A DNA stretch of 64,000 bases from assembly GCA_050010635.1 (NCBI GenBank), contig JBEKKR010000004.1, forward strand, positions 70,272-134,271. The letters run 5' to 3'. The notes below the pieces were generated by a model that worked only from the letters and a program-made list of their open reading frames with translations, searched no databases and had not been told where the DNA came from. Shown piece after piece: positions 1-20,080 of this stretch (position 1 is its first letter; each line of letters opens with the position of its first letter). The position numbers and the translations under genes are program-made. This stretch comes from Candidatus Limnocylindrales bacterium. Lineage in GTDB: Bacteria > Chloroflexota > Limnocylindria > Limnocylindrales > CSP1-4.

Positions 1-1
1 C

Positions 2-157: not shown

Positions 158-235
158 CCGGAACGAGCTCGGCCCGCCGGCCGGAGAGATCCGCGTACTC
201 GAAAGGTCGAAAGGCGCCTAGACTGGCGAGGGCTC

Positions 236-601
236 ATGCCGCCCTTGACTACGGCGGGGCGGCGGGCCCGGAGCTTCAAGGTGTCCTACGGGCTTCTTCA
301 CCGCCGGAGCGAGGCGGCACGGTCATCGATCCTGCGCGATCCTTCGCCCTCCAGGCGCATCTTCGTCGCATCGGAGATCGGGGCCGGCTGGCTCGTCGTC
401 GATACGGACGGTGTCGGCGTGGGCAAGGTGGCCGGGCTCGAGGGCGACTTCCTGATCGTCTCGCGCGGTTTCCTCTCTCCGCGTCTGTATGTCCCGCTCG
501 TGGGCGTGAGAGAGGTCACCGAAGGCACGGTGCGCCTCACCCTGACGATCGACCAGATCACCGGAAGTCGCTGGGCGGAGAAGCCGCGCAACGACCACTA
601 G
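236..601 (+). CDS. DUF2171-like small protein (PRC-barrel-like), hypothetical
   Basis: Core segment IGAGWLVVDTDGVGVGKVAGLEGDFLIVSRG..LYVPLVGVREVTEGTVRLTLTIDQI resembles the DUF2171 fold. It parallels the second copy at 60853-61134. True start is probably internal (GTG at about 281). Confidence 0.45.
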   Translation: MPPLTTAGRRARSFKVSYGLLHRRSEAARSSILRDPSPSRRIFVASEIGAGWLVVDTDGVGVGKVAGLEGDFLIVSRGFLSPRLYVPLVGVREVTEGTVRLTLTIDQITGSRWAEKPRNDH

Positions 602-696
602 CCGTTCCGCGTGCCGGTCTGCGGATGCGGGCCGGCGCTCTGCCGCTCGGCAGATGCGAACATCGGTCGACAAGCAGGATCAGCAGGAGGGTAGAC

Positions 697-1140
697 ATGG
701 CCACAGTCCGTCGTGCGGCGGTCAAATGGACGGGCGACCTCAACTCGGGAAACGGTCGCGTGGATGCGGTCACGAGTGGAGCCTTCTCGGCCTTGCCGGT
801 GACTTGGGCCTCGCGAATAGAGGCGGCCGACGGCCGCACGAGTCCGGAGGAATTGCTCGCCGCCGCCCACGCCAGCTGCTTCTCGATGGCCTTCTCCAGC
901 GATCTGGCCAAGGCCGGCTCGCCGCCGGAGAGCCTGGAGGTCACCTCTGAGGTCACCTTCGACAGGGTCGACGGCAAGTGGACGGTGATTTCGAGCAAGC
1001 TGGCGGTCCGCGGCCGCGTACCAGGCCTGGACGAAGAGCGATTCCGCGCCCTGGCCGACGGGGCCAAGAACGGCTGCCCGATCTCGCGAGCGATACAGGG
1101 CAACGTCGCCCTCAGCATCGAGGCGTCCCTGGACCAGTAG
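697..1140 (+). CDS. osmC: OsmC/Ohr family peroxiredoxin-like protein
   Basis: MATVRRAAVKWTGDLNSGNGRVDAV.. with the conserved Cys region (AHASCFSMAF, NGCPISRA) typical of OsmC. Internal ATG chosen over the extended ORF-track start. Confidence 0.8.
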   Translation: MATVRRAAVKWTGDLNSGNGRVDAVTSGAFSALPVTWASRIEAADGRTSPEELLAAAHASCFSMAFSSDLAKAGSPPESLEVTSEVTFDRVDGKWTVISSKLAVRGRVPGLDEERFRALADGAKNGCPISRAIQGNVALSIEASLDQ

Positions 1141-1255
1141 TCGCGCCCCGGGGCCAGCCGGACTCCCCGCTCGCCTGGCGGCCGGGGCCGCCCGGGGAGT
1201 CGGAAGCCTGCGGGCTCTCCTCCCCTCCAGCGCCCGGCCCTGCTAATCTCGCCGC

Positions 1256-1801
1256 ATGAGCAAACAGGACCCGCCCAAGGCCGTTCGTATCGACAGCTGG
1301 AGCTTCGACGGCAGCTGGCCCGCCAGGCGGCCGGGTATCCCGATGGTCGGCATCTTCCTGATCATCCTGGGCCTCTTCCTCGGTGCCGGCCAGCTCTTCA
1401 GCCAGGCTCAACTGGGGGCCTCGGCATTCTTCCTCGCCGTAGGCCTAGTCCTGGTCATCGTCGGGATTCGCGACCGCAGCGACCTGGCCCTCTACGTGGG
1501 CGTGTTCATCACGGCGCTGGCCCTATCGGACGTCCTCACCAGCCTGAACGTCATCCGCGGCTCAGGATGGGGCACCCTGTTCCTTGGTGTGGGCGTGATG
1601 GCGATCGCCCTGATCCGCTCGACCGCCGGCCGCCGTTGGGGCTGGGCCCTTGGCATCGGCGCCCTCCTCGCCCTCTGGGGCGGCAGCGACGTGGCGGCGT
1701 CCTACGCCAACTTCCCCACCGATCGGCTCATCGGGCCTCTGCTGATAGTGCTTCTCGGGGTCTACATCGTGACCCGGAGCCGGAGCGGCAGGCGCGTCTG
1801 A
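1256..1801 (+). CDS. hypothetical integral membrane protein
   Basis: 181 aa with 4-5 hydrophobic helices (IFLIILGLFLGAG.., FFLAVGLVLVIVGI.., LLIVLLGVYIV). No family recognised. Confidence 0.55.
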   Translation: MSKQDPPKAVRIDSWSFDGSWPARRPGIPMVGIFLIILGLFLGAGQLFSQAQLGASAFFLAVGLVLVIVGIRDRSDLALYVGVFITALALSDVLTSLNVIRGSGWGTLFLGVGVMAIALIRSTAGRRWGWALGIGALLALWGGSDVAASYANFPTDRLIGPLLIVLLGVYIVTRSRSGRRV

Positions 1802-2222
1802 CTCCACCCAGCGCGGGTAGCTCTGCGGAAGCACCGGGCGGGCGCGGCGGCCCGAAGTCGGGCGGAAACGCGCAATTGGCCGGTAACGGTACGAACGCGT
1901 GCTCTGGGTTGGGTCCGTCGGCCCGGCTCGTTCGACCGAGGGCCCCGCGACCGAGGCCGTTGGACGGCGACGAACGGCCCCTCAGGCCGGCCTGTCGCCG
2001 GCCCGCGCTCGGAGCCCTCGACGGCCGCCGGAATCGCCGCCGGCGCTCCGATCAGCAGCTCCAGCAGCGAGTAGGCCTCGCGACGGGCTTCCTCCACAGA
2101 CAGCGCACCGGCCTCGAGAATGCGGACGACGAAGCCGTCGATGAGGGTCATCTTCGACGGTCATCCGGCACTTCGCCGGGTGGCCGTCGGGGACGTTGTT
2201 CGCCGGAGAGGATCCGGCGAGC

Positions 2223-3614
2223 TCAGCCCGGCCCGGGCGCGACCTCCGCGCAGGCCTTCTCTACCGCGCCCCCGACGATTTCGACGCAACGCGCCAACTC
2301 CACGTCCGTGATCACGAACGGCGGCCCGAGAAGGATGGTGTCGCCGTTCGTGCCGTCGGCGTTGCCCGTGCCGTGGTACATGAGCAGACCGGCGGCGCGG
2401 GCCTGGACCATGACGGCCTCGATCAGCCGGGCCGACCGCGGGAAGGGCCGCCGCGTAGCGCGATCGGCGACCAGCTCCAGTCCAACCATCAAGCCGCGGC
2501 CCCGGATCTCGCCAACGTTCCGATGGCCCCCCAGGCGATCCGCCAGGAGCCCCTTCAGCCGCGCGCCCTTGACCGCGCTCGCCTCGACGAGCTTCTCCGT
2601 CTCGAGGATTCGGAGCACCTCGCCGGCCGCGGCCGCACCGACCGGTGAGTGGCTGTATGTGAACCCATGGACGAAGCCACCGGCGGCCGTGACCGTCTCG
2701 TAGACTTGGCCACTCGCCACGGCCAGGCCGAACGGGAAGTAGCCCCCGGCGGCGCCCTTGGCCGCGGCCATCACGTCGGCCCGGACGCCCCAGTGATCCA
2801 TCCCGAACCATCGCCCCGTCCGCCCGAATCCGGTCATCACCTCGTCGGCCACGAGCAGGACGCCGTGGCGCCGGCAGACCTCCGCGACGGCCGGCCAGTA
2901 GCCGTCCGGCGGGGCCACCGCGCCGAGAGTGGCGCCGACGATTGGCTCTGCGACAAAGGCGGCCACTCTCCCCTCCCCGGCCGCGGCGATGGCCGCCTCG
3001 AGCTCGGCGACCAGCCTGTCCACGTCGCCGAGGGCGTGAGCGGCGGCCTCTCCCGCCCGGTACGGGTACGCGGCGCTGACGTGGTCGAAGCGGCCCAGCC
3101 ACGGCTCGTAGGGGCGGCGCAGCGGCTCGCGGCCGGATAGATCAAGCGCCCCCATGGAGTTGCCGTGGTAGCTGCCCCACCGGGCGATGACGGCGGTCCG
3201 GTCGGGCTCGCGGCGGGCCAGGTGATAGGCCCGCGCCAGCTTGAGGCAGCTCTCGATCGCCTCCGAGCCGCCGCTGACCGGGTAGATGGCCGGATCGTCA
3301 ACGGGGAGGTACCGGGCCACGGCTCGCGCGTACGACTCGAGCGGCTCGCTGGTGAAGGTAGTGCCGTGGACGTAGGTGAAGGCGCCGGCCTGGCGCGCCA
3401 TGGCGTCCACGACCGACTGCCGGCCGTGGCCCACGTTGACGACGACGGCCCCGCCGGCGGCGTCCAGATACGCCCGGCCTTCGGTGTCCCAGATGGTGCA
3501 GCCTTCGGCCCTCGCCGCGACCGGCAGATCGCGGCCGATGACCCGCTGGAAGACTCGCCCGGTGACGGTCGCGCCGACGCCAGCGCCGACGCGGGTGCGA
3601 TCTCTAAGGCTCAT
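2223..3614 (-). CDS. class III (omega) aminotransferase, PLP-dependent
   Basis: 463 aa. Carries the aspartate-aminotransferase-family-III hallmarks: GxGxxG-type PLP region, VLLVADEVMTGFGRTG (PLP-lysine loop), and SYHGNS. Confidence 0.9.
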   Translation of the reverse strand: MSLRDRTRVGAGVGATVTGRVFQRVIGRDLPVAARAEGCTIWDTEGRAYLDAAGGAVVVNVGHGRQSVVDAMARQAGAFTYVHGTTFTSEPLESYARAVARYLPVDDPAIYPVSGGSEAIESCLKLARAYHLARREPDRTAVIARWGSYHGNSMGALDLSGREPLRRPYEPWLGRFDHVSAAYPYRAGEAAAHALGDVDRLVAELEAAIAAAGEGRVAAFVAEPIVGATLGAVAPPDGYWPAVAEVCRRHGVLLVADEVMTGFGRTGRWFGMDHWGVRADVMAAAKGAAGGYFPFGLAVASGQVYETVTAAGGFVHGFTYSHSPVGAAAAGEVLRILETEKLVEASAVKGARLKGLLADRLGGHRNVGEIRGRGLMVGLELVADRATRRPFPRSARLIEAVMVQARAAGLLMYHGTGNADGTNGDTILLGPPFVITDVELARCVEIVGGAVEKACAEVAPGPG

Positions 3615-3733
3615 CTGCCGATTGTAGGACGCAGGTCAGATCAGCCGCGCGAACCAAATACATGAGTGAGTCACTTAGGGCCATAGGGCGCCCGTGACGT
3701 GACAAGCGGCAGATGGTCACATGCATTCCAGCG

Positions 3734-3747
3734 ATCTATTCATAGAT
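3734..3747. promoter_or_regulatory. perfect 6-2-6 palindrome ATCTATTCATAGAT, candidate ArsR-type operator
   Basis: Inverted repeat ATCTAT/ATAGAT seen directly in the divergent intergenic region. It lies about 65 bp upstream of the ArsR start and the whole sulfur operon. Confidence 0.4.
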
Positions 3748-3810
3748 CACGCATAGATCGATGGGAGTCCGCCAATGCCGAACCTCACGCGTCCGCTGGA
3801 GCACTGAGCC

Positions 3811-4179
3811 ATGTTGCGCCCCGCCGACGGCATCTACGGCCTCCAGGCCTCACTCCTCAAGACACTTGCCAGCCCGCGCCGGCTCGAGATCGTCCACTAC
3901 CTGGGTGAGTCCGGCCCGGTCGAGGTGCGGAAGCTCGCCGAGCATTTCGGCTCGACTCAGCCGGCGATCTCGCAGCACCTTGCCGCCCTGCGGGGAGTGG
4001 GCATCGTCGAGGCCGTTCGAGACGGTCGTGAAGTCCGGTACCAACTGGCCGATCCGGAGATCGTCGCGGCGTGCGGCGCGATGCGCCAGGTCCTGATTCG
4101 GCGCATTGCCCGTCTCGGCGACATCGCCGCGTCGTATTCCAACCCTCAACCGGCCGACTCCGTCCCGGTCAACCGGTAG
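3811..4179 (+). CDS. ArsR/SmtB family transcriptional regulator (sHdrR/SoxR-like)
   Basis: wHTH signature LKTLASPRRLEIVHYLGESGPVEVRKLAEHFGSTQPAISQHLAALRGVGIVE. About 60% identical paralog at 16892-17278. Confidence 0.85.
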   Translation: MLRPADGIYGLQASLLKTLASPRRLEIVHYLGESGPVEVRKLAEHFGSTQPAISQHLAALRGVGIVEAVRDGREVRYQLADPEIVAACGAMRQVLIRRIARLGDIAASYSNPQPADSVPVNR

Positions 4180-4222
4180 GCAAACCAAAATCTGGTTCCG
4201 CACAACAAGGAGATTGCGAGTC

Positions 4223-4588
4223 GTGGCCGAGAAGCTCATGTTCATGCTCACCCACGGGCCGAACCATCCCGAACACGTGACGATCCCGTTCGTCATGGCA
4301 GTTGCCGCTCTTGCCTCGGACGTCGAGGCCGTCATCGGACTCCAGGCCGACGGCGTCGAGATCGCCGTCAAGGGCCGCGCCGAATCGGTCGCTGCCGAAG
4401 GCTTCCCTCCCCTCTCCAAGCTCATGAACGACTACAAAGAACTCGGCGGGAAGATCCTCATCTGCGGCCCGTGCGTCAAGTCACGCCAGATCGACGCCGC
4501 CACCCAGCTCGTCGAGAACGCCGAGGTCGTCGCGGCGGCCCGGTTTGTGGTCGAACTGACTTCCGCCACAAACGCCCTGAGTTACTAA
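4223..4588 (+). CDS. DsrE/DsrF-like sulfur relay family protein
   Basis: GTG start 8 nt after AAGGAG. MFMLTHGPNHPE..ILICGPCVKSR resembles the DsrE/YchN fold. It sits immediately 5' of tusA. Confidence 0.75.
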   Translation: MAEKLMFMLTHGPNHPEHVTIPFVMAVAALASDVEAVIGLQADGVEIAVKGRAESVAAEGFPPLSKLMNDYKELGGKILICGPCVKSRQIDAATQLVENAEVVAAARFVVELTSATNALSY

Positions 4589-4612
4589 CCAGCAACCCAT
4601 TCGGAGAAACCT

Positions 4613-4876
4613 ATGAGCGCCTTGGACGTAGCAGAACTCGGAAACCTCACCGCCGCCGAAGTCATCGACGCCCGCGGCGCTGCCTGCCCCGGCCCGCTCC
4701 TCGAGGCCAAGAAGGGCATGGGCAAGGTCGCCATCGGCGACGTCATTGAAGTCTGGTCCAGCGACCCGGTCACCAAGACCGACATGGGCGCCTGGGCCGG
4801 CAAGGTCGGGCATGAGTTCCTCGGCGTCATCGAGGCAGACGGATACGACCGCGTCTTCCTTCGCCGCGGCAAGTAG
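4613..4876 (+). CDS. tusA: TusA-like sulfur carrier protein
   Basis: 87 aa with the invariant CPxP motif (ARGAACPGPLLEAKKGM) and typical two-layer alpha/beta size. Confidence 0.85.
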   Translation: MSALDVAELGNLTAAEVIDARGAACPGPLLEAKKGMGKVAIGDVIEVWSSDPVTKTDMGAWAGKVGHEFLGVIEADGYDRVFLRRGK

Positions 4877-4966
4877 CGCGGTCGGCCGGCACGAGCCGGC
4901 GGGACCCCGATCGGCGGGCGGCCCCCTCGCCCCCGCCGGGTTGAGCATCGCAGGAGCACTGGACTG

Positions 4967-5407
4967 ATGACTGCGCTCGCGGCACCTGTTGATGAGAAGA
5001 CGGGCACAGCCGCCCCGCGAATCCTGGTCTTCTCCACCAACAACATCTCCGATCCCGGCATCGACCTAGCCGGGAGCGCCCACCTCCACTACTCACCCGG
5101 TGTGCGTGTCATCAGCATGCCGTGCACCAGCGGCATCCGCCCTTCATGGATCCTCCACGCCATCAAGCAGGGTTTCGAAGGTGTCTTCATTGCCTCCGAC
5201 GGGGACGAGTGTGCCTACCTGCCCGACTGCGCCAAGCGCGCGTCGCGGATCATCGCCGAGGCTCAGGCGCTGCTCAAGGCGGAGGGTCTCGCGCCGCAGC
5301 GCATCAAGATGGCCGCCATCTGCTCGGTCTGCGCGGAGAACTTCGCCAAGCACATGAACCAGTTCTCGGAGGCGCTGATCGCGCTCCGATCGGCTGGAGC
5401 CAACTGA
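4967..5407 (+). CDS. MvhD/FlpD-like iron-sulfur protein (methyl-viologen-reducing hydrogenase delta subunit family)
   Basis: 146 aa. RILVFSTNNISDPGIDLAG..MPCTSGI..FIASDGDECAYLPDC..CSVC matches the MvhD Cys pattern. Its stop overlaps the hdrA1 start (ATGA). Confidence 0.8.
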   Translation: MTALAAPVDEKTGTAAPRILVFSTNNISDPGIDLAGSAHLHYSPGVRVISMPCTSGIRPSWILHAIKQGFEGVFIASDGDECAYLPDCAKRASRIIAEAQALLKAEGLAPQRIKMAAICSVCAENFAKHMNQFSEALIALRSAGAN

Positions 5408-8133
5408 TGACCAGCTACGACGCCCTTGTCGTCGGCAGCGGCATCGCCGGCATGGAATCCGCGCTCAAGCTGGGCGACATGGGCTACAAGATCCTGCTCG
5501 TCGAGAAGGAGGCGAGCGTCGGCGGCCGGATGATCCTGCTCAGCAAGGTCTTCCCCACCCTCGACTGCGCCAGCTGCATCTCCACGCCGAAGATGGCAGC
5601 CTCGATCCACCACCCCAACGTGACCGCTCTGACGTACACCGAAGTCGACGACATCGCCCGCCAGGAGGGCGGCCGCTTCAAGGCCACCATCCGTCGGAAG
5701 CCGCGCTTCGTCGACGAGGCCGCCTGCACCGGATGCCAGCTATGCGAGACGGCCTGTACAGTCGCCGTCCCGGACCAGTTCAACGCCGACATGGTCGCCC
5801 GCCGGGCCGCCTACATCACGTTCCCGCAGGCCGTACCGAAGAAGGCCGTCCTCGAGCGGGCCGGCACTTCGCCCTGCACCTACACGTGTCCTGCGGGCAT
5901 CAAGGCCCACGGCTACGTCTCCCTCATTCGCAGCGGGGAATACGAGAAGGCCTTCCAGCTCGTCCTGGATGCGACGCCGCTAGTTGGGACCCTCGGCCGA
6001 GCCTGCTACGCCCCGTGCGAGGGCGAGTGCACCCGCGGCTCCCTCGAAGGCACGCTGCCGATACGGCGACTCAAGCGCTTCGCCGCCGACCAGCACTACG
6101 CCTCCGCCGATGGGCCCAATGTCGAAATTCCGCCCGCCAACGGCAGGAGGGTGGCCGTTGTCGGCTCCGGACCGGCCGGCCTGACCGCCGCCTGGCAGCT
6201 CGCCCGGCGTGGCTACGGCGTGAAGATCTTCGAAGCCGCTCCGGTTGCCGGCGGCTTCCTCAGGCTCGCCATCCCGGCCTACCGCCTCCCGGCCGAGGTC
6301 GTGGATCAGGACATCTCCAACGTGACCGCCATCGGCGTGGAAATCGCCACGAATTCGCCGGTCACGGACCTAGACGCGCTGCGGCGAGACGGCTACGACG
6401 CCGTCCTGGTCGCCACCGGAACGCCGCTTTCCACCGCGCTCAACGTCCCCGGTGAGAACCTTGATGGCGTCCTCGGCGGTCTGAAGTTCCTCCGCACCGC
6501 CAAGCTCGGCGCCCCGACGGACCTGACCGGCAAGAAGGTCGTGGTCGTGGGCGGCGGCAACGTCGCCATGGACGCGGCCCGCAGCGCCGTCCGGCTCGGC
6601 GCCGCCGAGACCACCGTCGCCTATCGCCGCGGTCGAGAAGAGATGCCGGCCCATAAGGCCGAAGTCGACGAAGCCGAACAAGATGGCGTCAGGTTCTCGT
6701 TGCAGGTAGCTCCCGTCGAGGTCGTCGGTGATGCCGCCGGCCAAGTCACCGGGCTGCGCTGCCAGCGCATGGCCCTGGGCAAGCCCGACGCCTCCGGGCG
6801 CCGCCGCCCGGAGCCGATCAGGGGCAGCGAATTCGTGATCGCCTGCGACACGGTCCTCGTGGCCATCGGCATGGCTCCCGAAGGTTCGGCCTTTGGGAGC
6901 GGCATCGCCGCCAACGCGAACGGCACGCTCGTCGCCGACAAGAACACGCTCCAGACGGCCGTCCCGCACGTATTCGCCGCCGGCGACGTGACCACGGGCG
7001 CGTCGGACATTACCCAAGCGGTCGGCCAGGGCCGCCGGGCCGCCCACATGATCGACCGATATCTGCAGGGCGAGCCGCTCACCGGGTTCGAGATGGACGG
7101 CCTCCTGCCGCTCGTCGACAAGCCGGCCGTCCTGGCCCGCCAGAAAAACTACGTCAACCACTCGCCGGCGATCGCCGCCGAACCTGCACCCGGCGGCGTT
7201 GCCGGCCTCGCCAAGCCGGACTTCGCGGAGGTGGAGGCCCCCCTGACCGAAGAGGAGGCGCGCGCCTCCGCCGGCGATTGCCTGGACTGCGGCGTCTGCT
7301 CGGAGTGCCAGGAGTGCGTCACGGTCTGTCCATCGGATGCCATCCACCTGGACATGCGCGAGCAGATCGAAGAGATCGACGTCGGCGCTGTGGTGGTCGC
7401 AACCGGCTACAAGCTGTTCACGGCCGACGCCAAGCCTGAGTACGGCTTCGGCCGCTACAAGAACGTCATCACCGGCATGCAGATGGACCGCCTGCTCGCG
7501 CCGACCAGGCCGTTCAACACGGTCCTGCGCCCGGGCGACGGCAAGGTTCCCGAGCGAATCGCTTACGTCATGTGCACGGGCTCTCGCGACGAGACCGTCG
7601 ACAACCCGCTCTGCTCGCGCTTCTGCTGCATGTACTCGATCAAGCAGAACCAGCTCGTCATGGGCGCGCTGCCGCTGGCCGAGGTCACCGTCCACTACAT
7701 GGACATCCGAGCCCCGGGCAAGCGCTACGACGAGTTCTACGAGGGCGCCAAAGCGATGGGCGCCACGTACGTCAAGGGCCGCGTCGCGAAGATCACCGAG
7801 AAGCCCGACGGCAACCTGGTCCTGCGCTACGAGGACATCGAGCACGGCGGGGCGCTCGTCGAGGCCGAGTACGACATGGTCGTGCTGGCAGTCGGCGTCC
7901 AGCCGAATCGAGACGTCGAACGCCTCTTCTCAGGCGACACGATCGAACTCAACGATTACCACTACGTGGCCGAACCGAGCGAGGACATGAACCCGGGGAC
8001 GACGAGCATACCCGGCGTCTTCGTGGCCGGAACCGCGTCCGGCGCAAAGGACATCACCGACTCGATCCTGCATGCCGGCGCCGCAGCGGCCCAAGCCGCA
8101 GCCCACCTGGAGTCAGTGAAGGTGCCGGCATGA
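5407..8133 (+). CDS. HdrA-like FAD/FeS flavoprotein with inserted GltD/NfnB-like NAD(P)H oxidoreductase module
   Basis: 909 aa. Domains in order: N-terminal FAD Rossmann (VVGSGIAGM), a ferredoxin motif CTGCQLCETAC, and an approximately 430-aa pyridine-nucleotide-disulfide-oxidoreductase module. That module has two GxGxxG sites (VAVVGSGPAGL and VVVVGGGNVAMD) and ends in AAGDVTTG, like the glutamate-synthase small subunit. A second Fd motif CLDCGVCSECQECVTVCP follows, then the HdrA signature CTGSRDETVDNPLCSRFCC. Confidence 0.85.
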   Translation: MTSYDALVVGSGIAGMESALKLGDMGYKILLVEKEASVGGRMILLSKVFPTLDCASCISTPKMAASIHHPNVTALTYTEVDDIARQEGGRFKATIRRKPRFVDEAACTGCQLCETACTVAVPDQFNADMVARRAAYITFPQAVPKKAVLERAGTSPCTYTCPAGIKAHGYVSLIRSGEYEKAFQLVLDATPLVGTLGRACYAPCEGECTRGSLEGTLPIRRLKRFAADQHYASADGPNVEIPPANGRRVAVVGSGPAGLTAAWQLARRGYGVKIFEAAPVAGGFLRLAIPAYRLPAEVVDQDISNVTAIGVEIATNSPVTDLDALRRDGYDAVLVATGTPLSTALNVPGENLDGVLGGLKFLRTAKLGAPTDLTGKKVVVVGGGNVAMDAARSAVRLGAAETTVAYRRGREEMPAHKAEVDEAEQDGVRFSLQVAPVEVVGDAAGQVTGLRCQRMALGKPDASGRRRPEPIRGSEFVIACDTVLVAIGMAPEGSAFGSGIAANANGTLVADKNTLQTAVPHVFAAGDVTTGASDITQAVGQGRRAAHMIDRYLQGEPLTGFEMDGLLPLVDKPAVLARQKNYVNHSPAIAAEPAPGGVAGLAKPDFAEVEAPLTEEEARASAGDCLDCGVCSECQECVTVCPSDAIHLDMREQIEEIDVGAVVVATGYKLFTADAKPEYGFGRYKNVITGMQMDRLLAPTRPFNTVLRPGDGKVPERIAYVMCTGSRDETVDNPLCSRFCCMYSIKQNQLVMGALPLAEVTVHYMDIRAPGKRYDEFYEGAKAMGATYVKGRVAKITEKPDGNLVLRYEDIEHGGALVEAEYDMVVLAVGVQPNRDVERLFSGDTIELNDYHYVAEPSEDMNPGTTSIPGVFVAGTASGAKDITDSILHAGAAAAQAAAHLESVKVPA

Positions 8134-9878
8134 GCCCCGCCGAAAGCCGCGACCCTCAAGCCCGCCGCATCGGGGTTTATGTCTGCCACTGCGGCGGCAA
8201 CATCTCCGACTACGTCGACGTCCAGGCCGTCGTCGACGCGGTCAAGGACGAGCAGGGCGTCGTGATCGCCAAGCACATGATGTTCGCCTGCTCCGACGCC
8301 GGACAGCAGGAGATGGAAGAGGACATCGCCGCCAACGACCTGGACGGCCTCGTCGTCGCCTCTTGCTCGCCCAAGCTCCACGTCGTCACGTTCCGCGGCG
8401 TCGCGAAGCGCTCGGGCATGAATCCCTACGAGTACAACCAGGCCAACATCCGCGAGCAGTGCTCGTGGACCCACACCGACGATCGCGACGGCGCCACGCA
8501 CAAGGCCATCGGCCTGGTCCGCGGCGTCATCGGCCGGACCCGCCTCACCGAGGCCCTGGAACCGCTCGTCGTCGAGACCACGCAGAAGGCGCTGATCATC
8601 GGCGGCGGCGTGACCGGCCTGCGAGCCGCGATCGGTATGGCGGACATCGGCCTGGGCGTCTTCCTGGTGGAGCGCGAGCCCGAGCTCGGCGGCTGGGTCG
8701 GCAAGTTCGGCCCGATGTTCCCACACGAGCGAGACGGCCGCGAGCTGATCGCCCGGATGGTCTCCGAGATCAAGAAGCGACCATCGATCAAGGTCTTCAC
8801 CGGGGCCGAGGTCGTAACCAAGGCCGGCAGCTTCGGTAACTACGAGATCGGCATCCGCGTTGCCGCCGACCCGCCGCAGACCCTCTCTGTGGAGGTCGGC
8901 TCGATCGTCGTCGCTACCGGCTTCGACGCCTACCAGCCGGCCGAAGGCGAGCTCGGGGCCGGCTTGCCGGGCGTACTGACGCTGCCCGAGTTCAAGGATC
9001 TGGTCGACGGCTCGAAGGGTCCGCTCCGCTACAACGGCCGGCCCGTTCGCAGCCTCGCGTACATCTACTGCGTGGGCAGCCGCCAGCCGGACGGCAACGA
9101 GTACTGCTCGCGCTTCTGCTGCTCCGCCACGGCTCACGTCTCGATCAAGGTCTCGGAGCGGGACCCGAAGGTTCGCCAGTACCACCTCTATCGCGACATC
9201 CGGACGTACGGCAACTTCGAGCTTCTGTACACGGAAGCCCGCAAGCAGGGCGCGATCTACGTCAAGTTCCCGGACGACGCCCCTCCCGTCGTAGCCGTCG
9301 AGGCGGGTGGCGGCCTGGCGGTGACCGTCCGCGACCTGCTCTCCGGCGACGAAGAGCTGGAGATACCGGTGGACCTGGTGGTCCAGGTCACCGGCATGAT
9401 CGCCCGTAAGAACGACGAGATGGTCGGGATGCTGAAGCTACCGCTCGGCCGCGATGGCTTCTTCAACGAGATCCACCCCAAGCTGCGGCCGGTCGAAACG
9501 ATGGTCGACGGGGTCCTGATCGCCGGCGCTTGCCAGGGGCCCAAGAGCTCGGCCGAGAGCGTGGCCTCGGGCCTGGCCGCGGTCACCCAGAGCGCGTCCG
9601 TGCTCAAGAAGGGCGTGGCGGAGCTGGATCCGCTCGTCGCCACGGTCGACCCGGACAGGTGCACCTGGTGCGGCAAATGCGAGACCGCCTGCCCCTACGG
9701 AGCGATCGAGAAGCTGTCGCTCAACGGTCGCGAGGTCGCGACGATCAGCGAGGCCGGCTGCAAAGGCTGCGGCGGCTGCGTCCCAATGTGCCCCGAAAAC
9801 GCCATCGACCTGCGCGGCTACACGGACGCCCAGATCACGGCAATGATCGACGGCCTGCTCGAGGAGGCGATCGCATGA
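8130..9878 (+). CDS. HdrA/QmoB-like FAD/FeS flavoprotein with C-terminal 2x[4Fe-4S] ferredoxin domain
   Basis: 583 aa. Cys-rich N-domain (VYVCHCGGNISDYVD), FAD site ALIIGGGVTGL, HdrA signature CVGSRQPDGNEYCSRFCC, and C-terminal CTWCGKCETACP / CKGCGGCVPMCP. ATGA overlap with hdrA1. Confidence 0.85.
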   Translation: MSPAESRDPQARRIGVYVCHCGGNISDYVDVQAVVDAVKDEQGVVIAKHMMFACSDAGQQEMEEDIAANDLDGLVVASCSPKLHVVTFRGVAKRSGMNPYEYNQANIREQCSWTHTDDRDGATHKAIGLVRGVIGRTRLTEALEPLVVETTQKALIIGGGVTGLRAAIGMADIGLGVFLVEREPELGGWVGKFGPMFPHERDGRELIARMVSEIKKRPSIKVFTGAEVVTKAGSFGNYEIGIRVAADPPQTLSVEVGSIVVATGFDAYQPAEGELGAGLPGVLTLPEFKDLVDGSKGPLRYNGRPVRSLAYIYCVGSRQPDGNEYCSRFCCSATAHVSIKVSERDPKVRQYHLYRDIRTYGNFELLYTEARKQGAIYVKFPDDAPPVVAVEAGGGLAVTVRDLLSGDEELEIPVDLVVQVTGMIARKNDEMVGMLKLPLGRDGFFNEIHPKLRPVETMVDGVLIAGACQGPKSSAESVASGLAAVTQSASVLKKGVAELDPLVATVDPDRCTWCGKCETACPYGAIEKLSLNGREVATISEAGCKGCGGCVPMCPENAIDLRGYTDAQITAMIDGLLEEAIA

Positions 9879-10138
9879 ACGCTCCCAACGTCGCGCCCGA
9901 CAGGGACCTGCGCGAGATCATCCGCGAGGAGCCGCTCATGAGAAGCCGGATCCTCGAGGTTCTCGCCGACGGTCCGCACACCGTGCCGGAGATCGCCGAG
10001 GCCCTCGGCCGCCCGACTCATGAAGCCATGTACTGGGTCATGGGCATGCGCCGGTACGGCTGGGTCCGTGAGCTCAAGGATGTGACGCCCGAGGGCTACT
10101 TCCGCTACGGGGCCGTCCAGAAGGAGACGCGGTCATGA
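9875..10138 (+). CDS. small winged-helix-like protein, translationally coupled inside the hdr/qmo-like operon
   Basis: 87 aa. GAGGAGG RBS, and ATGA overlaps on both sides. ILEVLADGPHTVPEIAEALGRPTHEAMYWVMGMRRYGWV looks like a wHTH fold. Confidence 0.5.
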   Translation: MNAPNVAPDRDLREIIREEPLMRSRILEVLADGPHTVPEIAEALGRPTHEAMYWVMGMRRYGWVRELKDVTPEGYFRYGAVQKETRS

Positions 10139-11292
10139 CCGCGCGAGTCGATCGCAACCTCTATCCCGAGCTTCAGCGCTTCGGCGCCACGGACATTTCG
10201 GCGTGCTTCAACTGCGGTGTCTGCTCCGCCATCTGCCCGCTTTCAGTGGACGGCGCCTCGTTCCCGCGCCGGATGTCCCGCTACGCCCAGCTCGGTCTTC
10301 GCGAGAAGCTGCTCGCCAGCCCGGAGCTATGGTCTTGCTACGGCTGCTCCGAATGCACGGACTCGTGCCCGACCAAGGCCGATCCGGCCTCGTTCATGGC
10401 CGCCGCACGGCGCTACGCCGTCGCCAGCTATGACCGAACCCACCTCGCCTACCTGCTGGCAACCTCGCGGCTCTTCGCAGGCTTCTTCGTCGTCGCCCTC
10501 GTCGGGCTCCTTGCTGCCTTCATGTATTCGGTCCACAAGCCGGTCGACGGCTCGACGCTCGCCTTCTTCGACTTCGTCCCCAGCGACGTCATCCACAACA
10601 TGGGCATCGTCGCCATGGCGGTCATGGGAGTGGCGGCACTGGTCGGCCTGATAGAGATGGTCAGGCGCGTGTTGCGCGGACCCAAGGCAGTAGCCGCGAA
10701 GACGACGTTCGGCAAGGTGGCCGGGGCCGCCGTCTACGCGGTGGGCACCGAGTCGCTGGCCCAGACGCGCTTCCGAAAGGATTGCGCCGACGGGGCGGCG
10801 TCCGGCGAAGCCGGCGAGGCCCGGCCCTGGTATTCGCAGCGCTGGTTCATCCACTTCGCCACCATGTGGGGGTTCCTGGGCCTGCTCGGCGCCACGATGC
10901 TCGACTACGGCCTGGAACTGCTCGGCGTCAAGGCCGTGGGCACGGCGGTGCCGATCTGGTATCCAGTGCGCCTGCTCGGCACGATCGCCGGCGCCGCGCT
11001 GATCTACGGCACGACCGTGCTGATTGTCCGGCGCCTGCGCAAGAGCGACCGCTCAAGCCTCCACTCGACGACTTCGGACTGGACTTTCCTGGCAATGCTC
11101 TGGGTCACGGGCGTAACGGGCTTCGTCCTGGAACTCGCGCTATACCTGCCGCAGGCCCCCACGTGGGGCTACCCGATGTTCCTGCTCCACGTCGGAGTGG
11201 CCATGGCCCTGGTCCTGCTGGTGCCGTTCGGCAAGTTCGCCCACGTCTTCTACCGGCCGGTTGCGCTCTTCGCCATCAGGCTGCGCGGCTGA
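10135..11292 (+). CDS. QmoC/HdrE-HdrC-like membrane protein: di-[4Fe-4S] ferredoxin domain fused to a multi-helix, probably heme-b, membrane domain
   Basis: N-terminus carries CFNCGVCSAICP and CYGCSECTDSCP (HdrC-type). Five or more TM helices follow, with conserved His (HNMG, HFATMWG, HVGVAM, HVFYRP) as in NarI/HdrE cytochrome b. Confidence 0.8.
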   Translation: MTARVDRNLYPELQRFGATDISACFNCGVCSAICPLSVDGASFPRRMSRYAQLGLREKLLASPELWSCYGCSECTDSCPTKADPASFMAAARRYAVASYDRTHLAYLLATSRLFAGFFVVALVGLLAAFMYSVHKPVDGSTLAFFDFVPSDVIHNMGIVAMAVMGVAALVGLIEMVRRVLRGPKAVAAKTTFGKVAGAAVYAVGTESLAQTRFRKDCADGAASGEAGEARPWYSQRWFIHFATMWGFLGLLGATMLDYGLELLGVKAVGTAVPIWYPVRLLGTIAGAALIYGTTVLIVRRLRKSDRSSLHSTTSDWTFLAMLWVTGVTGFVLELALYLPQAPTWGYPMFLLHVGVAMALVLLVPFGKFAHVFYRPVALFAIRLRG

Positions 11293-11394
11293 GGCCTGCC
11301 GAGGGCACAACCTTTCCATACTCCATGACGTAAGCTCGAAGACACGCGAGACCGACCCACGGCGGCACATCGCAACCACAAAAGGAACCGGCCG

Positions 11395-11985
11395 ATGAGT
11401 TCCAAGAAACGCCACGGCGCAGCCGGCCGTCGCTCCACGGGTGGGACCGTCGTTGCCTCCAGCCCATCGAGGCCGGCGCTCTTTGCCGATGGGCAAGCTC
11501 GACTCGTTCTGCTCGTCGCCGTCCTCGTTCTGGCCGCCGCCGTCGTGATCGGCGCCGATCTTATCTTCGGCGCGATATCGAACGGCAGCGGGAGCACCGC
11601 AGCAACCGCTACGCCGGCCGCCACCTCGAGCCAGATCGGTGTCGTCGTCCAGGGCAGAGGGGGCCACTGGACCAACGTAACGCCGGATCAGCTGGCTCAG
11701 ATGATGGCCCGCAAGGACTTCACCCTGGTCAACGTCAAGACGCCGTACATCGGCGAGATCGACGGCACGGACCTCTACATCCCCTACGACCAGCTCACGG
11801 CGCGTGCCTCGGCGCTGCCCTCGAACAAGGGCGCCCGGATCCTCGTCTACTGCCGGAGCGGCGCGGAGAGCGCTCAGGCCGCCCAGACGCTGCTGGACCT
11901 GGGATATACCAACGTCTGGAACCTGGATGGCGGGATGAACGCCTGGCAGGCGTCCGGCCGCCCGATCGTCACCAGGAACCGGTAG
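11395..11985 (+). CDS. rhodanese-domain sulfurtransferase with N-terminal membrane anchor or signal
   Basis: TM helix LVLLVAVLVLAAAVVIG, then a rhodanese domain with active-site loop CRSGAES and C-terminal LDGGMNAW. Confidence 0.8.
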   Translation: MSSKKRHGAAGRRSTGGTVVASSPSRPALFADGQARLVLLVAVLVLAAAVVIGADLIFGAISNGSGSTAATATPAATSSQIGVVVQGRGGHWTNVTPDQLAQMMARKDFTLVNVKTPYIGEIDGTDLYIPYDQLTARASALPSNKGARILVYCRSGAESAQAAQTLLDLGYTNVWNLDGGMNAWQASGRPIVTRNR

Positions 11986-12001
11986 CGCCGGCCGGCGCGC
12001 T

Positions 12002-12718
12002 ATGTCCGCGGCGCCCGCCCTGTCCACCTATCGCGAGGGGTCGCTCCACGCGGCGTTGAAGGAGCTGTACGCCGGGGCGGGCGGCCGAACCGAGGCGAAA
12101 GTCGACGGCTACGTCGTGGACGTGGTCCGCGGCGACGAGCTGATCGAGATCCAAACCGCGGGCTTCGCCATGGCCGCCCGCAAGCTGAGGCGCCTGGTCG
12201 CGGACCACCGCATCGCCCTCGTCCACCCGATTGCCGTCGAGCGGTGGCTGCTGCGCGTCGACGCCGACGGCGTGGTCGTGGACCGCCGGCGCTCGCCCAA
12301 GCGCGGACGGCCGCTCGACGTCTTCGAGGAGCTCGTCGCCTTTCCGGAGCTCGTGGCGCACCCGAACTTCCGGCTCGAGTTGCCGATGATCTGCGAGGAA
12401 GAGATCCGCGGCCCGATACCGGCCGGCGCCCGCTACCGCTATCCGCGCGAGTGGTGGCGGCTCGACCGCCGGCTGCTCGAGGTAGTCGAGACGATCAGGA
12501 TCGACGTGCCGGCGGACCTGCTGCGGCTGCTACCCGAGGGCCTGCCCTCGCCTTTCACGACGGCCGACATCGTCGCCGCATCGAGGCGGTCGAAGCGACT
12601 GGCGATGCGAGCGGCCTACTGCCTGGCGAAATCCGGCGCCACTCGCAGCGTCGGCCTGGCCGGCCGGCTCCTCACCTACGAAGCCGAGACGAGCCCCGTG
12701 ACGGCCGGAGCTCAGTAG
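12002..12718 (+). CDS. conserved hypothetical protein (possible PD-(D/E)xK-like fold)
   Basis: 238 aa with protein-like composition. GYVVDVVRGDELIEIQT loosely resembles a nuclease-fold motif. No confident family. Confidence 0.45.
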   Translation: MSAAPALSTYREGSLHAALKELYAGAGGRTEAKVDGYVVDVVRGDELIEIQTAGFAMAARKLRRLVADHRIALVHPIAVERWLLRVDADGVVVDRRRSPKRGRPLDVFEELVAFPELVAHPNFRLELPMICEEEIRGPIPAGARYRYPREWWRLDRRLLEVVETIRIDVPADLLRLLPEGLPSPFTTADIVAASRRSKRLAMRAAYCLAKSGATRSVGLAGRLLTYEAETSPVTAGAQ

Positions 12719-13188
12719 ATCCAGGGCAGCAGGCGGCGCGTCCGGCTGCGGTAGCTGCCGTAGTCGGCGAACTGCTCCGCCAGCCAGAGTTCTTCGCGAC
12801 GCGACTTGAGGTCGAAGAAGACGGCCAGGCCGAGCGCCAGGACCAGGGTGAGCGGCGAGGCCCGCAAGATCCCCCACCCTGCTGCTCCGAGTATCAGGCC
12901 GCCGTAGATCGGATGTCGAACCAGGCTGTATGCGCCACAGTCAACCAGGGTCGCGCCGGGAAGCGGCTTCGGGAACGGCGTCAGGTTCTCGCGCAGATCC
13001 AGCACGCCGCGGACCGACAGCAGCCCGCCGCAGACAATCAGGATGGCGCCGAGGGCTTCGCCGGCCGTCCGCGCCGTGCCGCCCCAGGCGGGGCCGGCGA
13101 GGCCGGAGGCCGCGATCGCCGCGAAGAAGACCAGCTGCAGCAGGAACCAGCCCTCGCCGCGTCGGCCGAGATCGGGAAGCCGAGTCAT
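12712..13188 (-). CDS. isoprenylcysteine carboxyl methyltransferase (ICMT)/phospholipid methyltransferase family membrane protein
   Basis: 158 aa membrane protein with the C-terminal RHPxYxG-type motif (VRHPIYGGLILGAAGW..EE..L...F..Y..Y). Confidence 0.7.
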   Translation of the reverse strand: MTRLPDLGRRGEGWFLLQLVFFAAIAASGLAGPAWGGTARTAGEALGAILIVCGGLLSVRGVLDLRENLTPFPKPLPGATLVDCGAYSLVRHPIYGGLILGAAGWGILRASPLTLVLALGLAVFFDLKSRREELWLAEQFADYGSYRSRTRRLLPWIY

Positions 13189-13197
13189 GGCATTCGT

Positions 13198-13824
13198 CTA
13201 CTGGCGGGGCAGGCGGCGGATGACGAGCAGCGAGTCGATCGGGGCACGGGCGGGCGGCGGGGCCCTCCGCACCACCTCGGCGCGCTCGACGACAAGGCCG
13301 GGATCGGTGGCCAGCAGCTCGCGGCCGATCTCTTCTGCGGTGAACAAGCGAGTCGCTTCCGGCGGCCCGCCCTCGCCCTGGGTCTCGTTCAGGCGGTCGT
13401 GGCCCACGACGATCATGCTGCCGCCCGGCGCCACCGCGGCCGCCGCCCGGGCATAGACGGGTCCGCGTTCCTTGGGCGACAGGTGCAGGTAGACGATGAC
13501 CACCAGGCCAAAGGCCCGTCGGGGTGGGAACCAGTCGAACAGGTTGCGTTCCAGCCAGTCGACGGTGACCCCGGCGTCACGCGCTTTCGCCATGCCGTTG
13601 GCCAGCGCAACGGGTGACCAATCCACGGCCGTGGTCCGCCAGCCCTGCCCGGCCAGCCAGACCGCGTTGGTGCCGCTGCCCGCGGCGAGCTCGAGCGCAT
13701 TGCCGGGGATCGTGCCTGCCAGACCGGCCAAGCCCAGGACGAGCGTCGGGTTAGGAGCATCGCCCTCGAAGTCGCCGGCACGGTGGCGGTCGTCCCAGGC
13801 CAGGCGCCGTTCGTCGGCAGTCAC
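13198..13824 (-). CDS. class I SAM-dependent methyltransferase (TehB/thiopurine-MT-like)
   Basis: Motif I LELAAGSGTNAVWLA and post-I acidic residue (TTAVDWS). Size and layout match small-molecule methyltransferases. Confidence 0.7.
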   Translation of the reverse strand: MTADERRLAWDDRHRAGDFEGDAPNPTLVLGLAGLAGTIPGNALELAAGSGTNAVWLAGQGWRTTAVDWSPVALANGMAKARDAGVTVDWLERNLFDWFPPRRAFGLVVIVYLHLSPKERGPVYARAAAAVAPGGSMIVVGHDRLNETQGEGGPPEATRLFTAEEIGRELLATDPGLVVERAEVVRRAPPPARAPIDSLLVIRRLPRQ

Positions 13825-13827: not shown

Positions 13828-14163
13828 TCAGTCCCGCTCAAGAGGCCGGTTGGCGCGAGCCCAGGCGTCGGTCCCGCCTTTGACCGAGACAACACCCTCG
13901 AAGCCGTTCCGAAGAAGCAGGTCCGTCGCCACCCGGCTCCGAATGCCGTGCTCGCAGATGACCAGGAGCCGCTCGCCTCGCGGCAGGACGGCAATCCGTG
14001 CGGGCAGCTGGGCGAGGGGCAGGCTCACCGCCCCCGGGACGCGACGCCGCCGGAACTCCCACTCCTCGCGGACGTCCAGGAGGCGCACGCCTCCGTCGGT
14101 CATCAGGACGCCGAGTTCGTCAACGTCAATCTCCGGAATGGGTTGACGAATTGGCAGGGACAC
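13828..14163 (-). CDS. single-domain rhodanese (GlpE/PspE-like sulfurtransferase)
   Basis: 111 aa. Active-site loop CEHGIRS and C-terminal VKGGTDAW. Confidence 0.8.
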   Translation of the reverse strand: MSLPIRQPIPEIDVDELGVLMTDGGVRLLDVREEWEFRRRRVPGAVSLPLAQLPARIAVLPRGERLLVICEHGIRSRVATDLLLRNGFEGVVSVKGGTDAWARANRPLERD

Positions 14164-14280
14164 AGATGCTCCGATTCGGCCACTGCTGGGGATGAAGATC
14201 TACGCCACCGATTATCGTTGATGAGCCGATTTCCTGGCGCAGCGGATCGGCCCTTGGGATACATTACCGGCACTTGCGTT

Positions 14281-14290
14281 ATTGCGCAAT
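14281..14290. promoter_or_regulatory. 10-bp perfect palindrome ATTGCGCAAT upstream of tauE
   Basis: Seen in the divergent intergenic region about 40 bp upstream of the TauE/SafE start codon. Confidence 0.25.
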
Positions 14291-14330
14291 TTGGCATGTG
14301 CGAGGCCTTTATGCCGCCCTTCGGGTTCCG

Positions 14331-15173
14331 ATGACACCGGGCGCCGACATCGCGATCTTCGCGATCAGCGCCGCCGCGGGGCTGATCGGCGCCCTGGCGG
14401 GCGTCGGCGGTGGGATCCTGGTCATCCCTACGCTGACATTCGGTTTCGGCGTGGACATCCACCTGGCCGTCGGGGCGAGCATCGTATCGGTCATCGCCAC
14501 GAGCTCCGGAGCAGCCGCAGCCTACGTTCGGGACCGCATGACGGACATGCGGGTCGGCAAGTTTCTCGAACTGGCGACGACAACCGGAGCCGTCTGCGGC
14601 GCGCTCCTGGCGGCCGTCGTGGCGCCGGCTTTCCTGTACTTGCTGCTGGGTGTCGTCCTTCTCGGCACGGCGGCGATACAGGTCGCGCGCATGGGCGAGG
14701 AGAGCCCGCCAAACGACACGCCGTCGCCGCTGGCCGCCCGCCTGCGGCTTGAGTCGTCGTACCCAGACCGGCGTCTGGGCCGCGAAATCCCCTACTCGGC
14801 GCGCCGCATCCCCCTCGGGTTCGTGCTCATGTGGATCGCGGGCGTGGTGTCCGGGTTGCTCGGGATAGGCTCAGGCGTGCTGAAGGTGCTAGCGATGGAC
14901 GGCGTGATGCGGCTTCCGATGAAGGTCAGCTCCGCCACGAGCAACTTCATGATCGGGGTCACCGCGGCCGCCTCGGCCGGCATATACCTGGGCCGCGGCG
15001 ACGTGGACCCGAGGATCGCCGCGCCGGTGGCGCTGGGCGTCCTCACCGGGGCAATCGTCGGAGCCCGCCTCCTCGGCCGGGTCTCCAACCGCGCGGTCAG
15101 GCTGATCTTCCTGCCCGTTGTCATTGCCGTAGGGCTCGAGACGATCGGCCGCGGTTTGGGGTTCGGGCTATGA
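14331..15173 (+). CDS. TauE/SafE (TSUP, DUF81) family sulfite/organosulfonate exporter
   Basis: Two DUF81 repeats with Gly-rich helices (GVGGGILVIP, GIGSGVLKVL), 7-8 TM segments. Internal ATG at 14331 chosen. Confidence 0.8.
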   Translation: MTPGADIAIFAISAAAGLIGALAGVGGGILVIPTLTFGFGVDIHLAVGASIVSVIATSSGAAAAYVRDRMTDMRVGKFLELATTTGAVCGALLAAVVAPAFLYLLLGVVLLGTAAIQVARMGEESPPNDTPSPLAARLRLESSYPDRRLGREIPYSARRIPLGFVLMWIAGVVSGLLGIGSGVLKVLAMDGVMRLPMKVSSATSNFMIGVTAAASAGIYLGRGDVDPRIAAPVALGVLTGAIVGARLLGRVSNRAVRLIFLPVVIAVGLETIGRGLGFGL

Positions 15174-15529: not shown

Positions 15530-15642
15530 GGCGCCAACGGCACGCGACCCCGGGGTGTCCTCGTGAAGACGCTCCGGGGTCGCCGTGACGGGGGTCCGGT
15601 GATTGTCCGGCGCAGGCCGACGGTGGTTGGCAGGCCGCGAAC

Positions 15643-16140: not shown

Positions 16141-16191
16141 TTCGGATCCTTTCGTGTTGAGGGCGAACCAGTTGGGCGCTCGCCGGGGTGG

Positions 16192-16882: not shown

Positions 16883-16891
16883 GCGAGGGCC

Positions 16892-20075: not shown

Positions 20076-20080
20076 TCGAA

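Follow-up and report, generated by a model that had tools for sequence, protein, structure and literature searches.

Gene organization of the locus

In this study, we analysed a 64 kb stretch of DNA (hereafter the window) from the soil Chloroflexota bacterium Candidatus Limnocylindrales (contig JBEKKR010000004.1). It harbors an operon for flavoprotein and membrane subunits resembling those of QmoABC, together with the sulfur carrier proteins TusA and DsrE. The gene model, based on the listing of open reading frames (ORFs), inspection of start codons and the junction sequences, gives nine co-directional genes on the plus strand at positions 3811–11985. Their order is arsR, dsrE, tusA, mvhD, hdrA1, hdrA2, a small winged-helix (wHTH) gene, a qmoC-like gene and a rhodanese gene. 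The same nine genes were called independently on public metagenome contigs with identical proteins, in agreement with a preliminary description of this DNA that had given them in this order. The GC content of the window is 65–73%.

The preliminary description had also reported ATGA overlaps at four junctions. Four junctions do overlap, but only hdrA1/hdrA2, hdrA2/wHTH and wHTH/qmoC share the 4-nt ATGA, and the mvhD/hdrA1 junction is a 1-nt overlap (TGATG). The remaining intergenic gaps are 16–102 nt long. The translational coupling from mvhD through qmoC supports the formation of a complex by the encoded proteins. Searches with Pfam and NCBIfam bore out all the domain calls made earlier, placing the HdrA, MvhD, HdrC/NarI, DsrE and TusA families as claimed.

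Redox subunits

The mvhD gene (4967–5407, plus strand) encodes a MvhD/FlpD-type [2Fe-2S] electron-transfer subunit of 146 aa as a gene of its own (PF02662, 1e-28). The protein has five cysteines and matches the C-terminal MvhD part of the NCBIfam HdrA2 model (positions 644–774). The hdrA1 gene (5407–8133, plus strand) encodes a QmoA-like/HdrL-like flavoprotein of 908 aa, matching NCBIfam HdrA2 at 3.8e-135 and GltD/NfnB-type models at up to 4.5e-144. It has the thioredoxin-reductase-type FAD domain and the inserted-ferredoxin domain of HdrA and is devoid of the N-terminal and C-terminal HdrA domains. Its residues 5–152 align to residues 145–291 of the methanogen HdrA structure 5ODC, and residues 626–902 to residues 289–566. 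A GltD/NfnB-type module lies between the two (residues ~153–625; 5863–7281, plus strand; TIGR01316 gltA, 9.1e-97), consisting of a 2×[4Fe-4S] Fer4_20 domain (residues 154–231) and Pyr_redox_2 (248–542), with FAD and NAD(P)H Rossmann folds. Its best matches were the NfnB chains 4YLF_B (1.1e-84) and 5JCA_L (6.4e-77), and GltD. Since the HdrA alignment is split on either side of the module, it is a true insertion, as had been proposed beforehand, and the insertion point lies between the two cluster motifs of the inserted-ferredoxin domain. No gene for an NfnA (PyrK-like) partner was found in the operon; the NfnB-like part is an internal insert of HdrA1.

Next to the flavin domain, HdrA1 retains the motif FPTLDCASC (Cys54, Cys57). 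The pattern FPxxDCxxC was present in 59 of 70 HdrA1-like ORFs, and DCxxC was absent from 73 of 74 HdrA2-like sequences. In the alignment with the Methanococcales HdrA 9sfi_A, the second Cys of the motif falls on the X (selenocysteine) position. This motif is the sole candidate for a thiol centre that we found.

The hdrA2 gene (8130–9878, plus strand) encodes a QmoB-like flavoprotein of 582 aa (HdrA2 model, 1.6e-143) with an N-terminal Cys-cluster domain, an FAD domain and a C-terminal 2×[4Fe-4S] ferredoxin domain, and without the inserted-ferredoxin domain and DCxxC. Residues 10–243 align to HdrA residues 10–243, and residues 248–579 to HdrA 313–652. Both HdrA proteins scored 326–480 bits on the HdrA models, against equivalog cutoffs of 1100–1400. 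From these alignments, HdrA1 and HdrA2 appear complementary and look like a heterodimeric replacement of the HdrA homodimer, as QmoA and QmoB are also thought to be (PMC3333476).

The small wHTH protein (9875–10138, plus strand; 87 aa, no Cys) gave weak HTH_20 and HTH_5 matches, and its gene is translationally coupled on either side. The AlphaFold2 model (pLDDT 86) yielded generic MarR/ArsR/SmtB winged-helix matches only when compared with the PDB by Foldseek. A DsrD-like role was considered for this protein and rejected, as Foldseek returned only these generic matches and Pfam showed no DsrD match.

The qmoC-like gene (10135–11292, plus strand) encodes a membrane subunit of 385 aa that matches NCBIfam qmoC (3.9e-57), HdrC (2.1e-15) and Nitrate_red_gam. 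The N-terminal HdrC-like domain contains two CxxCxxCxxxCP motifs and matches HdrC chains in the PDB. The C-terminal NarI/HdrE-type cytochrome b domain has six predicted transmembrane helices. His352 and His370 are invariant, His240 is at least 90% conserved and His154 is conserved too; these four residues are candidate ligands for two hemes b.

Sulfur-carrier proteins

The dsrE gene (4223–4588, plus strand; alternative start at 4238) encodes a DsrE-family sulfurtransferase of 121 aa (PF02635, 3.3e-13). Its active-site Cys81 lies within a CGPC motif and is 100% conserved in 31 sequences, and its sole PDB match was 3MC3 (SSO1125, DsrE3A type; 2.9e-4). The tusA gene (4613–4876, plus strand) encodes the sulfur carrier TusA (87 aa; PF01206, 1.6e-18). 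The motif Cys25-Pro-Gly-Pro (CPGP, of the CPxP type) is 100% conserved in 64 operon-linked TusA sequences.

The last gene (11395–11985, plus strand) encodes a single-domain, membrane-anchored rhodanese of 196 aa (PF00581, 4.8e-13), with the active-site Cys153 in CRSGAES, which is 100% conserved in 11 sequences. The protein has a basic N-terminus, one predicted transmembrane helix (~residues 36–58) and a Ser/Thr/Ala-rich linker. The positive-inside rule predicts a catalytic domain on the outer side of the membrane, and so in a different compartment from TusA and DsrE.

Regulator and control region

The first gene, arsR (3811–4179, plus strand), encodes an ArsR/SmtB-family regulator of 122 aa (HTH_5, 5.7e-13; NF033788, 4e-23). 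Its single Cys (Cys88) is conserved in 91% of 23 homologues located beside related operons. A two-Cys persulfide sensor of the BigR/SqrR type was rejected, because the protein has one Cys only and scored 48 bits on the BigR model against a cutoff of 155. An inverted-repeat search revealed the perfect palindrome GATCTAT-N2-ATAGATC at 3733–3748 (no strand), within a longer inverted repeat (3728–3764) and 63–78 nt 5' of arsR. It occurs once in the window against 0.03 expected, and the identical palindrome is also found 5' of arsR in a diverged locus (L032). It may thus be regarded as a candidate ArsR operator. The scan of the operon for promoters and terminators detected no sigma-70-like promoter and no informative terminator, an outcome that is uninformative for a Chloroflexota genome of 69% GC. 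Downstream, a DUF8091 gene on the same strand (12002–12718) starts 16 nt past the rhodanese stop and may join the transcription unit; it is retained in the identical-protein contigs L001, L002, L005 and L006.

Distribution and conserved synteny

Relatives of the QmoC-like protein at E ≤ 1e-10 numbered more than 1,397 in a collection clustered at 90% identity and 666 among the representatives of 50%-identity clusters. When one genome per GTDB species was scanned with a profile, at least 594 genomes contained a relative. The best 80 loci from these genomes were studied by tblastn with the nine window proteins and by clustering of all other flanking ORFs, and synteny was counted in the 57 loci whose upstream flank was 7 kb or longer. 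By the names on the sequence records, the loci come from Chloroflexota (Limnocylindria, Anaerolineae, Thermoflexales), Actinomycetota, NC10, Acidobacteriota, Bacteroidota, Desulfobacterota, Planctomycetota, Spirochaetota and Latescibacteria, and also from Heimdallarchaeota. The carriers include Paludibacter, other Bacteroidales and Terracidiphilus.

The core of the operon is highly conserved. We found hdrA1, hdrA2 and mvhD each kept in 56/57 loci and tusA, immediately upstream of mvhD, in 55/57. The small wHTH gene stands between hdrA2 and qmoC in at least 45 of the 57, and a DsrE-family gene (PF02635 or DrsE_2 type), located upstream of tusA or downstream of qmoC, occurs in 50. The tusA-mvhD-hdrA-hdrA-qmoC synteny, whose recurrence in other genomes had been suggested as a check, therefore belongs to a widespread family with at least 55 species-level genomes from about ten phyla. 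On the other hand, the GltD/NfnB insert (19/57), the downstream rhodanese gene (13/57) and the upstream arsR gene (22/57) are variable accessories and not defining parts, and the latter two are largely confined to Limnocylindria loci. Further recurrent neighbours are regulators of the ArsR, LysR, PadR and sigma-54/PAS types, as judged from their sequence alone. The preliminary description had seen the complex as hard-wired to a persulfide relay of rhodanese, TusA and DsrE. The link to TusA and DsrE stands on these counts, but the rhodanese is a variable accessory with a domain predicted to face the outside of the cell.

Some of the loci show a more complex arrangement. Five Bacteroidota loci (L065, L066, L067, L078 and L083; ~240–4300) contain four extra genes upstream of tusA on the same strand, one of the five having been verified by Pfam. 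One of the four encodes a DsrM/HdrE-like membrane protein, which has a PLSKLKH motif but no Pfam match; the others encode a CCG protein of the HdrD/DsrK type, a cysteine desulfurase of class V and a DrsE_2 protein. Together they suggest a complete persulfide-handling unit. In six Limnocylindria loci (L022, L023, L029, L030, L032 and L033), arsR, tusA and qmoC are 55–80% identical to those of the window, as are dsrE and the rhodanese gene in most of them. Their mvhD-hdrA1-hdrA2-wHTH core is just 34–48% identical and has no NfnB insert. This diverged core within similar flanks suggests that the soluble module has been exchanged as a cassette. Contig L003 (ENA ERZ27250124 k141_850273, 1–12075) carries two tandem paralogous operons that are 52–67% identical, the second copy being preceded by genes for Crp-family and ArsR regulators and a glutaredoxin. 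In a Thermoleophilia metagenome-assembled genome (L073, 5188–21142), an insert-bearing and an insert-less operon lie tail to tail with a CCG-domain ORF between them.

Relationship to known Qmo, Hdr and sHdr systems

QmoABC of sulfate reducers and Chlorobi is presumed to connect the menaquinone pool to a cytoplasmic sulfur reaction (PMC3333476). The present locus shares with it two HdrA-related flavoproteins, a MvhD-type module, the fusion of an HdrC-like 2×[4Fe-4S] domain with an HdrE-NarI-like dihaem cytochrome b and the absence of HdrB. The QmoABC design recognised in the preliminary description was thus confirmed. This design, and the fact that qmoC was the best NCBIfam match of the membrane subunit, would be expected from an ordinary QmoABC (PMC3333476) serving an APS reductase (AprAB/Sat; APS, adenosine 5'-phosphosulfate) encoded elsewhere in the genome. 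However, several observations make this explanation extremely improbable. The window protein scored 194.4 bits on NCBIfam qmoC (NF038018), below the curated cutoff of 300. Five distant representatives that are only 27–29% identical to it scored 380–475 bits and are therefore canonical QmoC. A neighbor-joining tree placed the canonical QmoC in a clade of their own, apart from each of the 80 TusA-linked sequences. The branching of the TusA-linked clade itself agrees with taxonomy, with insert-bearing and insert-less states interleaved.

The gene content differs from canonical Qmo as well. MvhD is the C-terminal domain of QmoB there (PMC3333476) and a separate upstream gene here; the canonical partner AprBA/Sat is replaced by TusA/DsrE, a small wHTH gene precedes qmoC, and in the present Limnocylindria lineage the QmoA-like subunit carries the NfnB/GltD NAD(P)H module. 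When all called genes of the window and of the 10 kb upstream were annotated with Pfam, no AprA/B, Sat or DsrAB appeared, in line with the earlier remark that AprAB/Sat are not seen, and neither apr nor sat was among the recurrent neighbour gene clusters of the 80 related loci. Moreover, carriers such as Paludibacter, other Bacteroidales and Terracidiphilus are, to our knowledge, not sulfate reducers.

Genes for TusA, DsrE-family proteins and rhodanese accompany those of the sulfur-oxidizing sHdr systems, and an ArsR-type regulator is often in control (PMC11094781). The sHdr-LbpA systems (types I and II) and the present locus have in common that an HdrA-family flavoprotein occurs alongside these hallmark companions. 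The operon could accordingly provide the electron-transfer part of an sHdr-like or DsrMK-like sulfur-oxidizing system whose CCG subunit, and LbpA if needed, are encoded elsewhere in the genome. A scan of ORFs for CCG motifs found CCG-domain ORFs within the ~10 kb flanks of 8/80 related loci, and four representatives were verified as PF02754 by Pfam. The DsrM-like and HdrD/DsrK-like pair of the five Bacteroidota loci, upstream and on the same strand, points in the same direction.

We nevertheless consider this proposal very unlikely. No CCG-domain gene (PF02754; HdrB/D, sHdrB1/B2) and no gene for a lipoate-binding protein (GCV_H/lipoyl-type, LbpA) was found in the window and 10 kb upstream, as had been noted for the window at the outset, and no sHdrC is encoded in the window. 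The other 72 of the 80 loci have no CCG ORF within about 10 kb. The two HdrA proteins matched methanogen-type HdrA at 1e-100 or better, far better than the short, single-domain sHdrA (6TJR; 4e-41 and 3e-32), and sHdr systems have no such quinone-reactive QmoC-like membrane subunit.

The best structural and sequence relatives of the present subunits are HdrA, MvhD and HdrC of the methanogen MvhAGD-HdrABC complex, the model for flavin-based bifurcation. In contrast to that complex, HdrB and the MvhAG hydrogenase are missing here, and two complementary truncated paralogues take the place of the HdrA homodimer. At the end of the high-potential branch, HdrB is replaced by a cytochrome b that is quinone-reactive.

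Among published concepts, type II Qmo and HdrL come nearest to the present locus. In the accessible part of their report, Neukirchen et al. (2023) described type II Qmo as occurring with or without Dsr/Apr and with no known role, its proteins being nearer to typical HdrA than to bacterial QmoAB (PMC10504309). This description, which is all that the comparison draws on, fits the present locus, but the same part of the report mentions no TusA/DsrE linkage, wHTH gene or NfnB insert (PMC10504309). HdrL, a fusion of HdrA and glutamate synthase (GltD-type) beside mvhD in Desulfobacterium autotrophicum (PMC2702500), likewise unites HdrA and a GltD-type NAD(P)H/FAD module in one polypeptide adjoining mvhD. 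The HdrL loci have been reported as soluble systems with links to dsrABC, fdh or hdrA genes, whereas the fusion occurs here together with another HdrA, with a membrane anchor of the QmoC type and with TusA/DsrE. The locus is set apart by its linkage to TusA, by the conservation of the wHTH gene, by two HdrA proteins that complement each other and by an NfnB insert that is variable. Chernyh et al. 2020 is reportedly a further source on type II Qmo.

The preliminary description had called the architecture apparently undescribed. This holds for the linkage to TusA, as no description of a tusA-mvhD-hdrA-hdrA-qmoC cluster was found in the full-text searchable literature, with subscription-only papers, including reviews on TusA and HdrA modules, outside the search. 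For the architecture as a whole it is only partly right, given that type II Qmo and HdrL are already published.

Genomic surroundings

A second sulfur-trafficking cluster (13828–17278) lies 2 kb downstream and makes up, together with the operon, a sulfur island of ~13.5 kb. According to the Pfam annotation, it consists of a rhodanese gene (13828–14163, minus strand), genes for a TauE/SafE-type exporter and a DUF1634 protein (14331–15529, plus strand) and a DrsE_2-TusA-DrsE_2-ArsR gene set (15643–17278, minus strand). Two methyltransferase genes lie between the sulfur clusters (12712–13824, minus strand), one for a membrane protein of the PEMT/ICMT family (158 aa) and one for a SAM-dependent enzyme (208 aa). 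Since this membrane family includes the thiol S-methyltransferase MddA, methylation of sulfide or thiols is conceivable.

The hypE, hypD, hypC and hypF genes for [NiFe]-hydrogenase maturation are located at 17447–22549 (minus strand), 5.5 kb downstream of the operon. A hydrogenase partner for MvhD was rejected, because despite hypFCDE no structural genes occur in the window and none are recurrent in the related loci. Two separate 2-oxoacid:ferredoxin oxidoreductase gene sets follow at 24254–32486. The first has four genes (delta/alpha/beta/gamma), and the second encodes a fused 778-aa POR, a CBS protein and a TPP/ferredoxin subunit. The two sets indicate a ferredoxin-dependent metabolism in this organism, and they are relevant as a possible source or sink of low-potential electrons. 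CoA-transferase genes and etfBA with an acyl-CoA dehydrogenase gene are also found downstream.

Proposed function

Taken together, the data point to a Qmo-like, quinone-interacting complex that would turn over the persulfide sulfur of TusA/DsrE and be coupled to menaquinone, a proposal for and against which we find the chances evenly balanced. We infer that the membrane part of such a complex would be the QmoC-like subunit with two [4Fe-4S] clusters and a dihaem cytochrome b domain, the cytoplasmic part a flavoprotein heterodimer of HdrA1 and HdrA2 with MvhD, and the dedicated genetic partners TusA and the DsrE-family protein. The reaction would be a two-electron interconversion of the sulfane sulfur of a TusA/DsrE persulfide with sulfide and a free thiol, coupled to the menaquinone pool, and it may run in either direction. 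Its role in the cell may lie in respiration, in detoxification, in the supply of sulfur or in providing an electron sink. By analogy with the solved Mvh-Hdr structures, where HdrC docks on HdrA, the HdrC-like domain of QmoC would link an HdrA flavin electronically to the hemes and the quinone site. The HdrA-type flavin may permit electron confurcation or bifurcation between low- and high-potential partners. In this Limnocylindria lineage, the NfnB/GltD module of HdrA1 would feed or remove NAD(P)H electrons as a built-in third redox partner. External sulfane sulfur would be mobilised by the rhodanese, which faces outward, and the operon would be under the control of the ArsR repressor, which has one conserved Cys and would act at the palindrome 5' of its gene.

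The sulfur-relay reading is supported by the invariance of TusA Cys25 and DsrE Cys81 and by the tusA/DsrE synteny. The sulfur-themed neighbours, both in the Bacteroidota loci and in the second cluster downstream of the operon, support it as well. Further support comes from the match of the domain architecture to Qmo/Hdr electron-transfer modules, from the conservation of candidate heme and FeS ligands in the QmoC-like subunit and from the FPxxDCxxC motif as a candidate thiol centre of HdrA1. On standard potentials, the oxidation of sulfide to persulfide by menaquinone is exergonic, and a menaquinol-driven persulfide reduction would require a low-potential co-donor; the fused NAD(P)H module could act as such a co-donor. 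The same logic was applied to Qmo and APS by Ramos et al. (2012), who proposed that Qmo needs a low-potential co-donor, e.g., an NADH oxidoreductase (PMC3333476). GltD-like NfnB/SudA enzymes reduce polysulfide with NADPH in vitro, according to the citing passage of PMC5736913.

Some observations weigh against this proposal. None of the subunits has a recognised sulfur-converting site: a CCG/noncubane-cluster protein, an AprA-type FAD site and sirohaem are all lacking, and TusA and DsrE have no redox cofactor. The NAD(P)H module is absent in 38/57 related loci, so NAD(P)H is not a universal partner. The rhodanese is predicted to be extracytoplasmic, yet the operon encodes no sulfur importer. 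Conserved synteny, moreover, demonstrates a functional link and not a substrate.

Another explanation is a sulfur-independent system, a flavin-based bifurcating NAD(P)H:ferredoxin/menaquinone oxidoreductase that would be a functional analogue of FixABCX, with TusA and DsrE as merely co-regulated accessories serving, e.g., cofactor sulfur supply or regulation. NAD(P)H would enter at the NfnB-like module, with one electron passing to menaquinone via QmoC and the other to ferredoxin via the ferredoxin domains of HdrA. The required parts are all present, namely an entry point for NADPH of the NfnB type, the flavins of HdrA, domains of the ferredoxin type and a cytochrome b that is quinone-reactive, and the lack of a visible sulfur-converting catalytic site agrees with this explanation. 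We think it unlikely, however. The position of tusA directly upstream of mvhD and the presence of a DsrE-family gene are both kept in nearly all loci, and they persist in the loci without the NAD(P)H module, where the electron donor would be missing. In addition, the catalytic Cys of TusA and DsrE are invariant, and the regulators and neighbours are sulfur-themed.

The proposed turnover of TusA/DsrE persulfide may also be taken one step further, to a distinct energy-converting class, although we assign a low probability to this version. The HdrA flavin would then use the TusA/DsrE persulfide/thiol couple (-SSH versus -SH + H2S, roughly -200 to -270 mV) as its mid-potential substrate and bifurcate the electrons to menaquinone and to ferredoxin or NADP+, or it would work in reverse as a confurcating persulfide reductase. 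The thiol chemistry would take place at the DCxxC of HdrA1 and not at a noncubane cluster of the HdrB type. The menaquinone branch would be exergonic and the ferredoxin or NADP+ branch endergonic. If true, the complex would act as an oxidoreductase between sulfide/sulfane sulfur and quinone, with energy conserved in the form of low-potential reductant.

Significance

These findings provide a testable lead for sulfur bioenergetics and for the mechanism of Qmo, and not a categorically new system. How the oxidation of menaquinol drives a cytoplasmic sulfur reaction in Qmo has been a puzzle since the co-donor proposal of 2012. With an NfnB-type NAD(P)H module as part of the QmoA-like subunit, the idea of a built-in co-donor can be tested directly, and natural contrasts are offered by insert-bearing and insert-less modules within the same flanks and by the five Bacteroidota loci with the DsrMK-like pair. 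Should the proposed function be correct, a quinone-linked route for sulfane sulfur would exist in many soil, sediment and gut-type bacteria not counted among the sulfur metabolisers, including Limnocylindria, Anaerolineae, Acidobacteriota and Bacteroidales, and it is a route missed by dsrAB, aprAB, sox, shdr and sqr, the markers used in surveys of the sulfur cycle.

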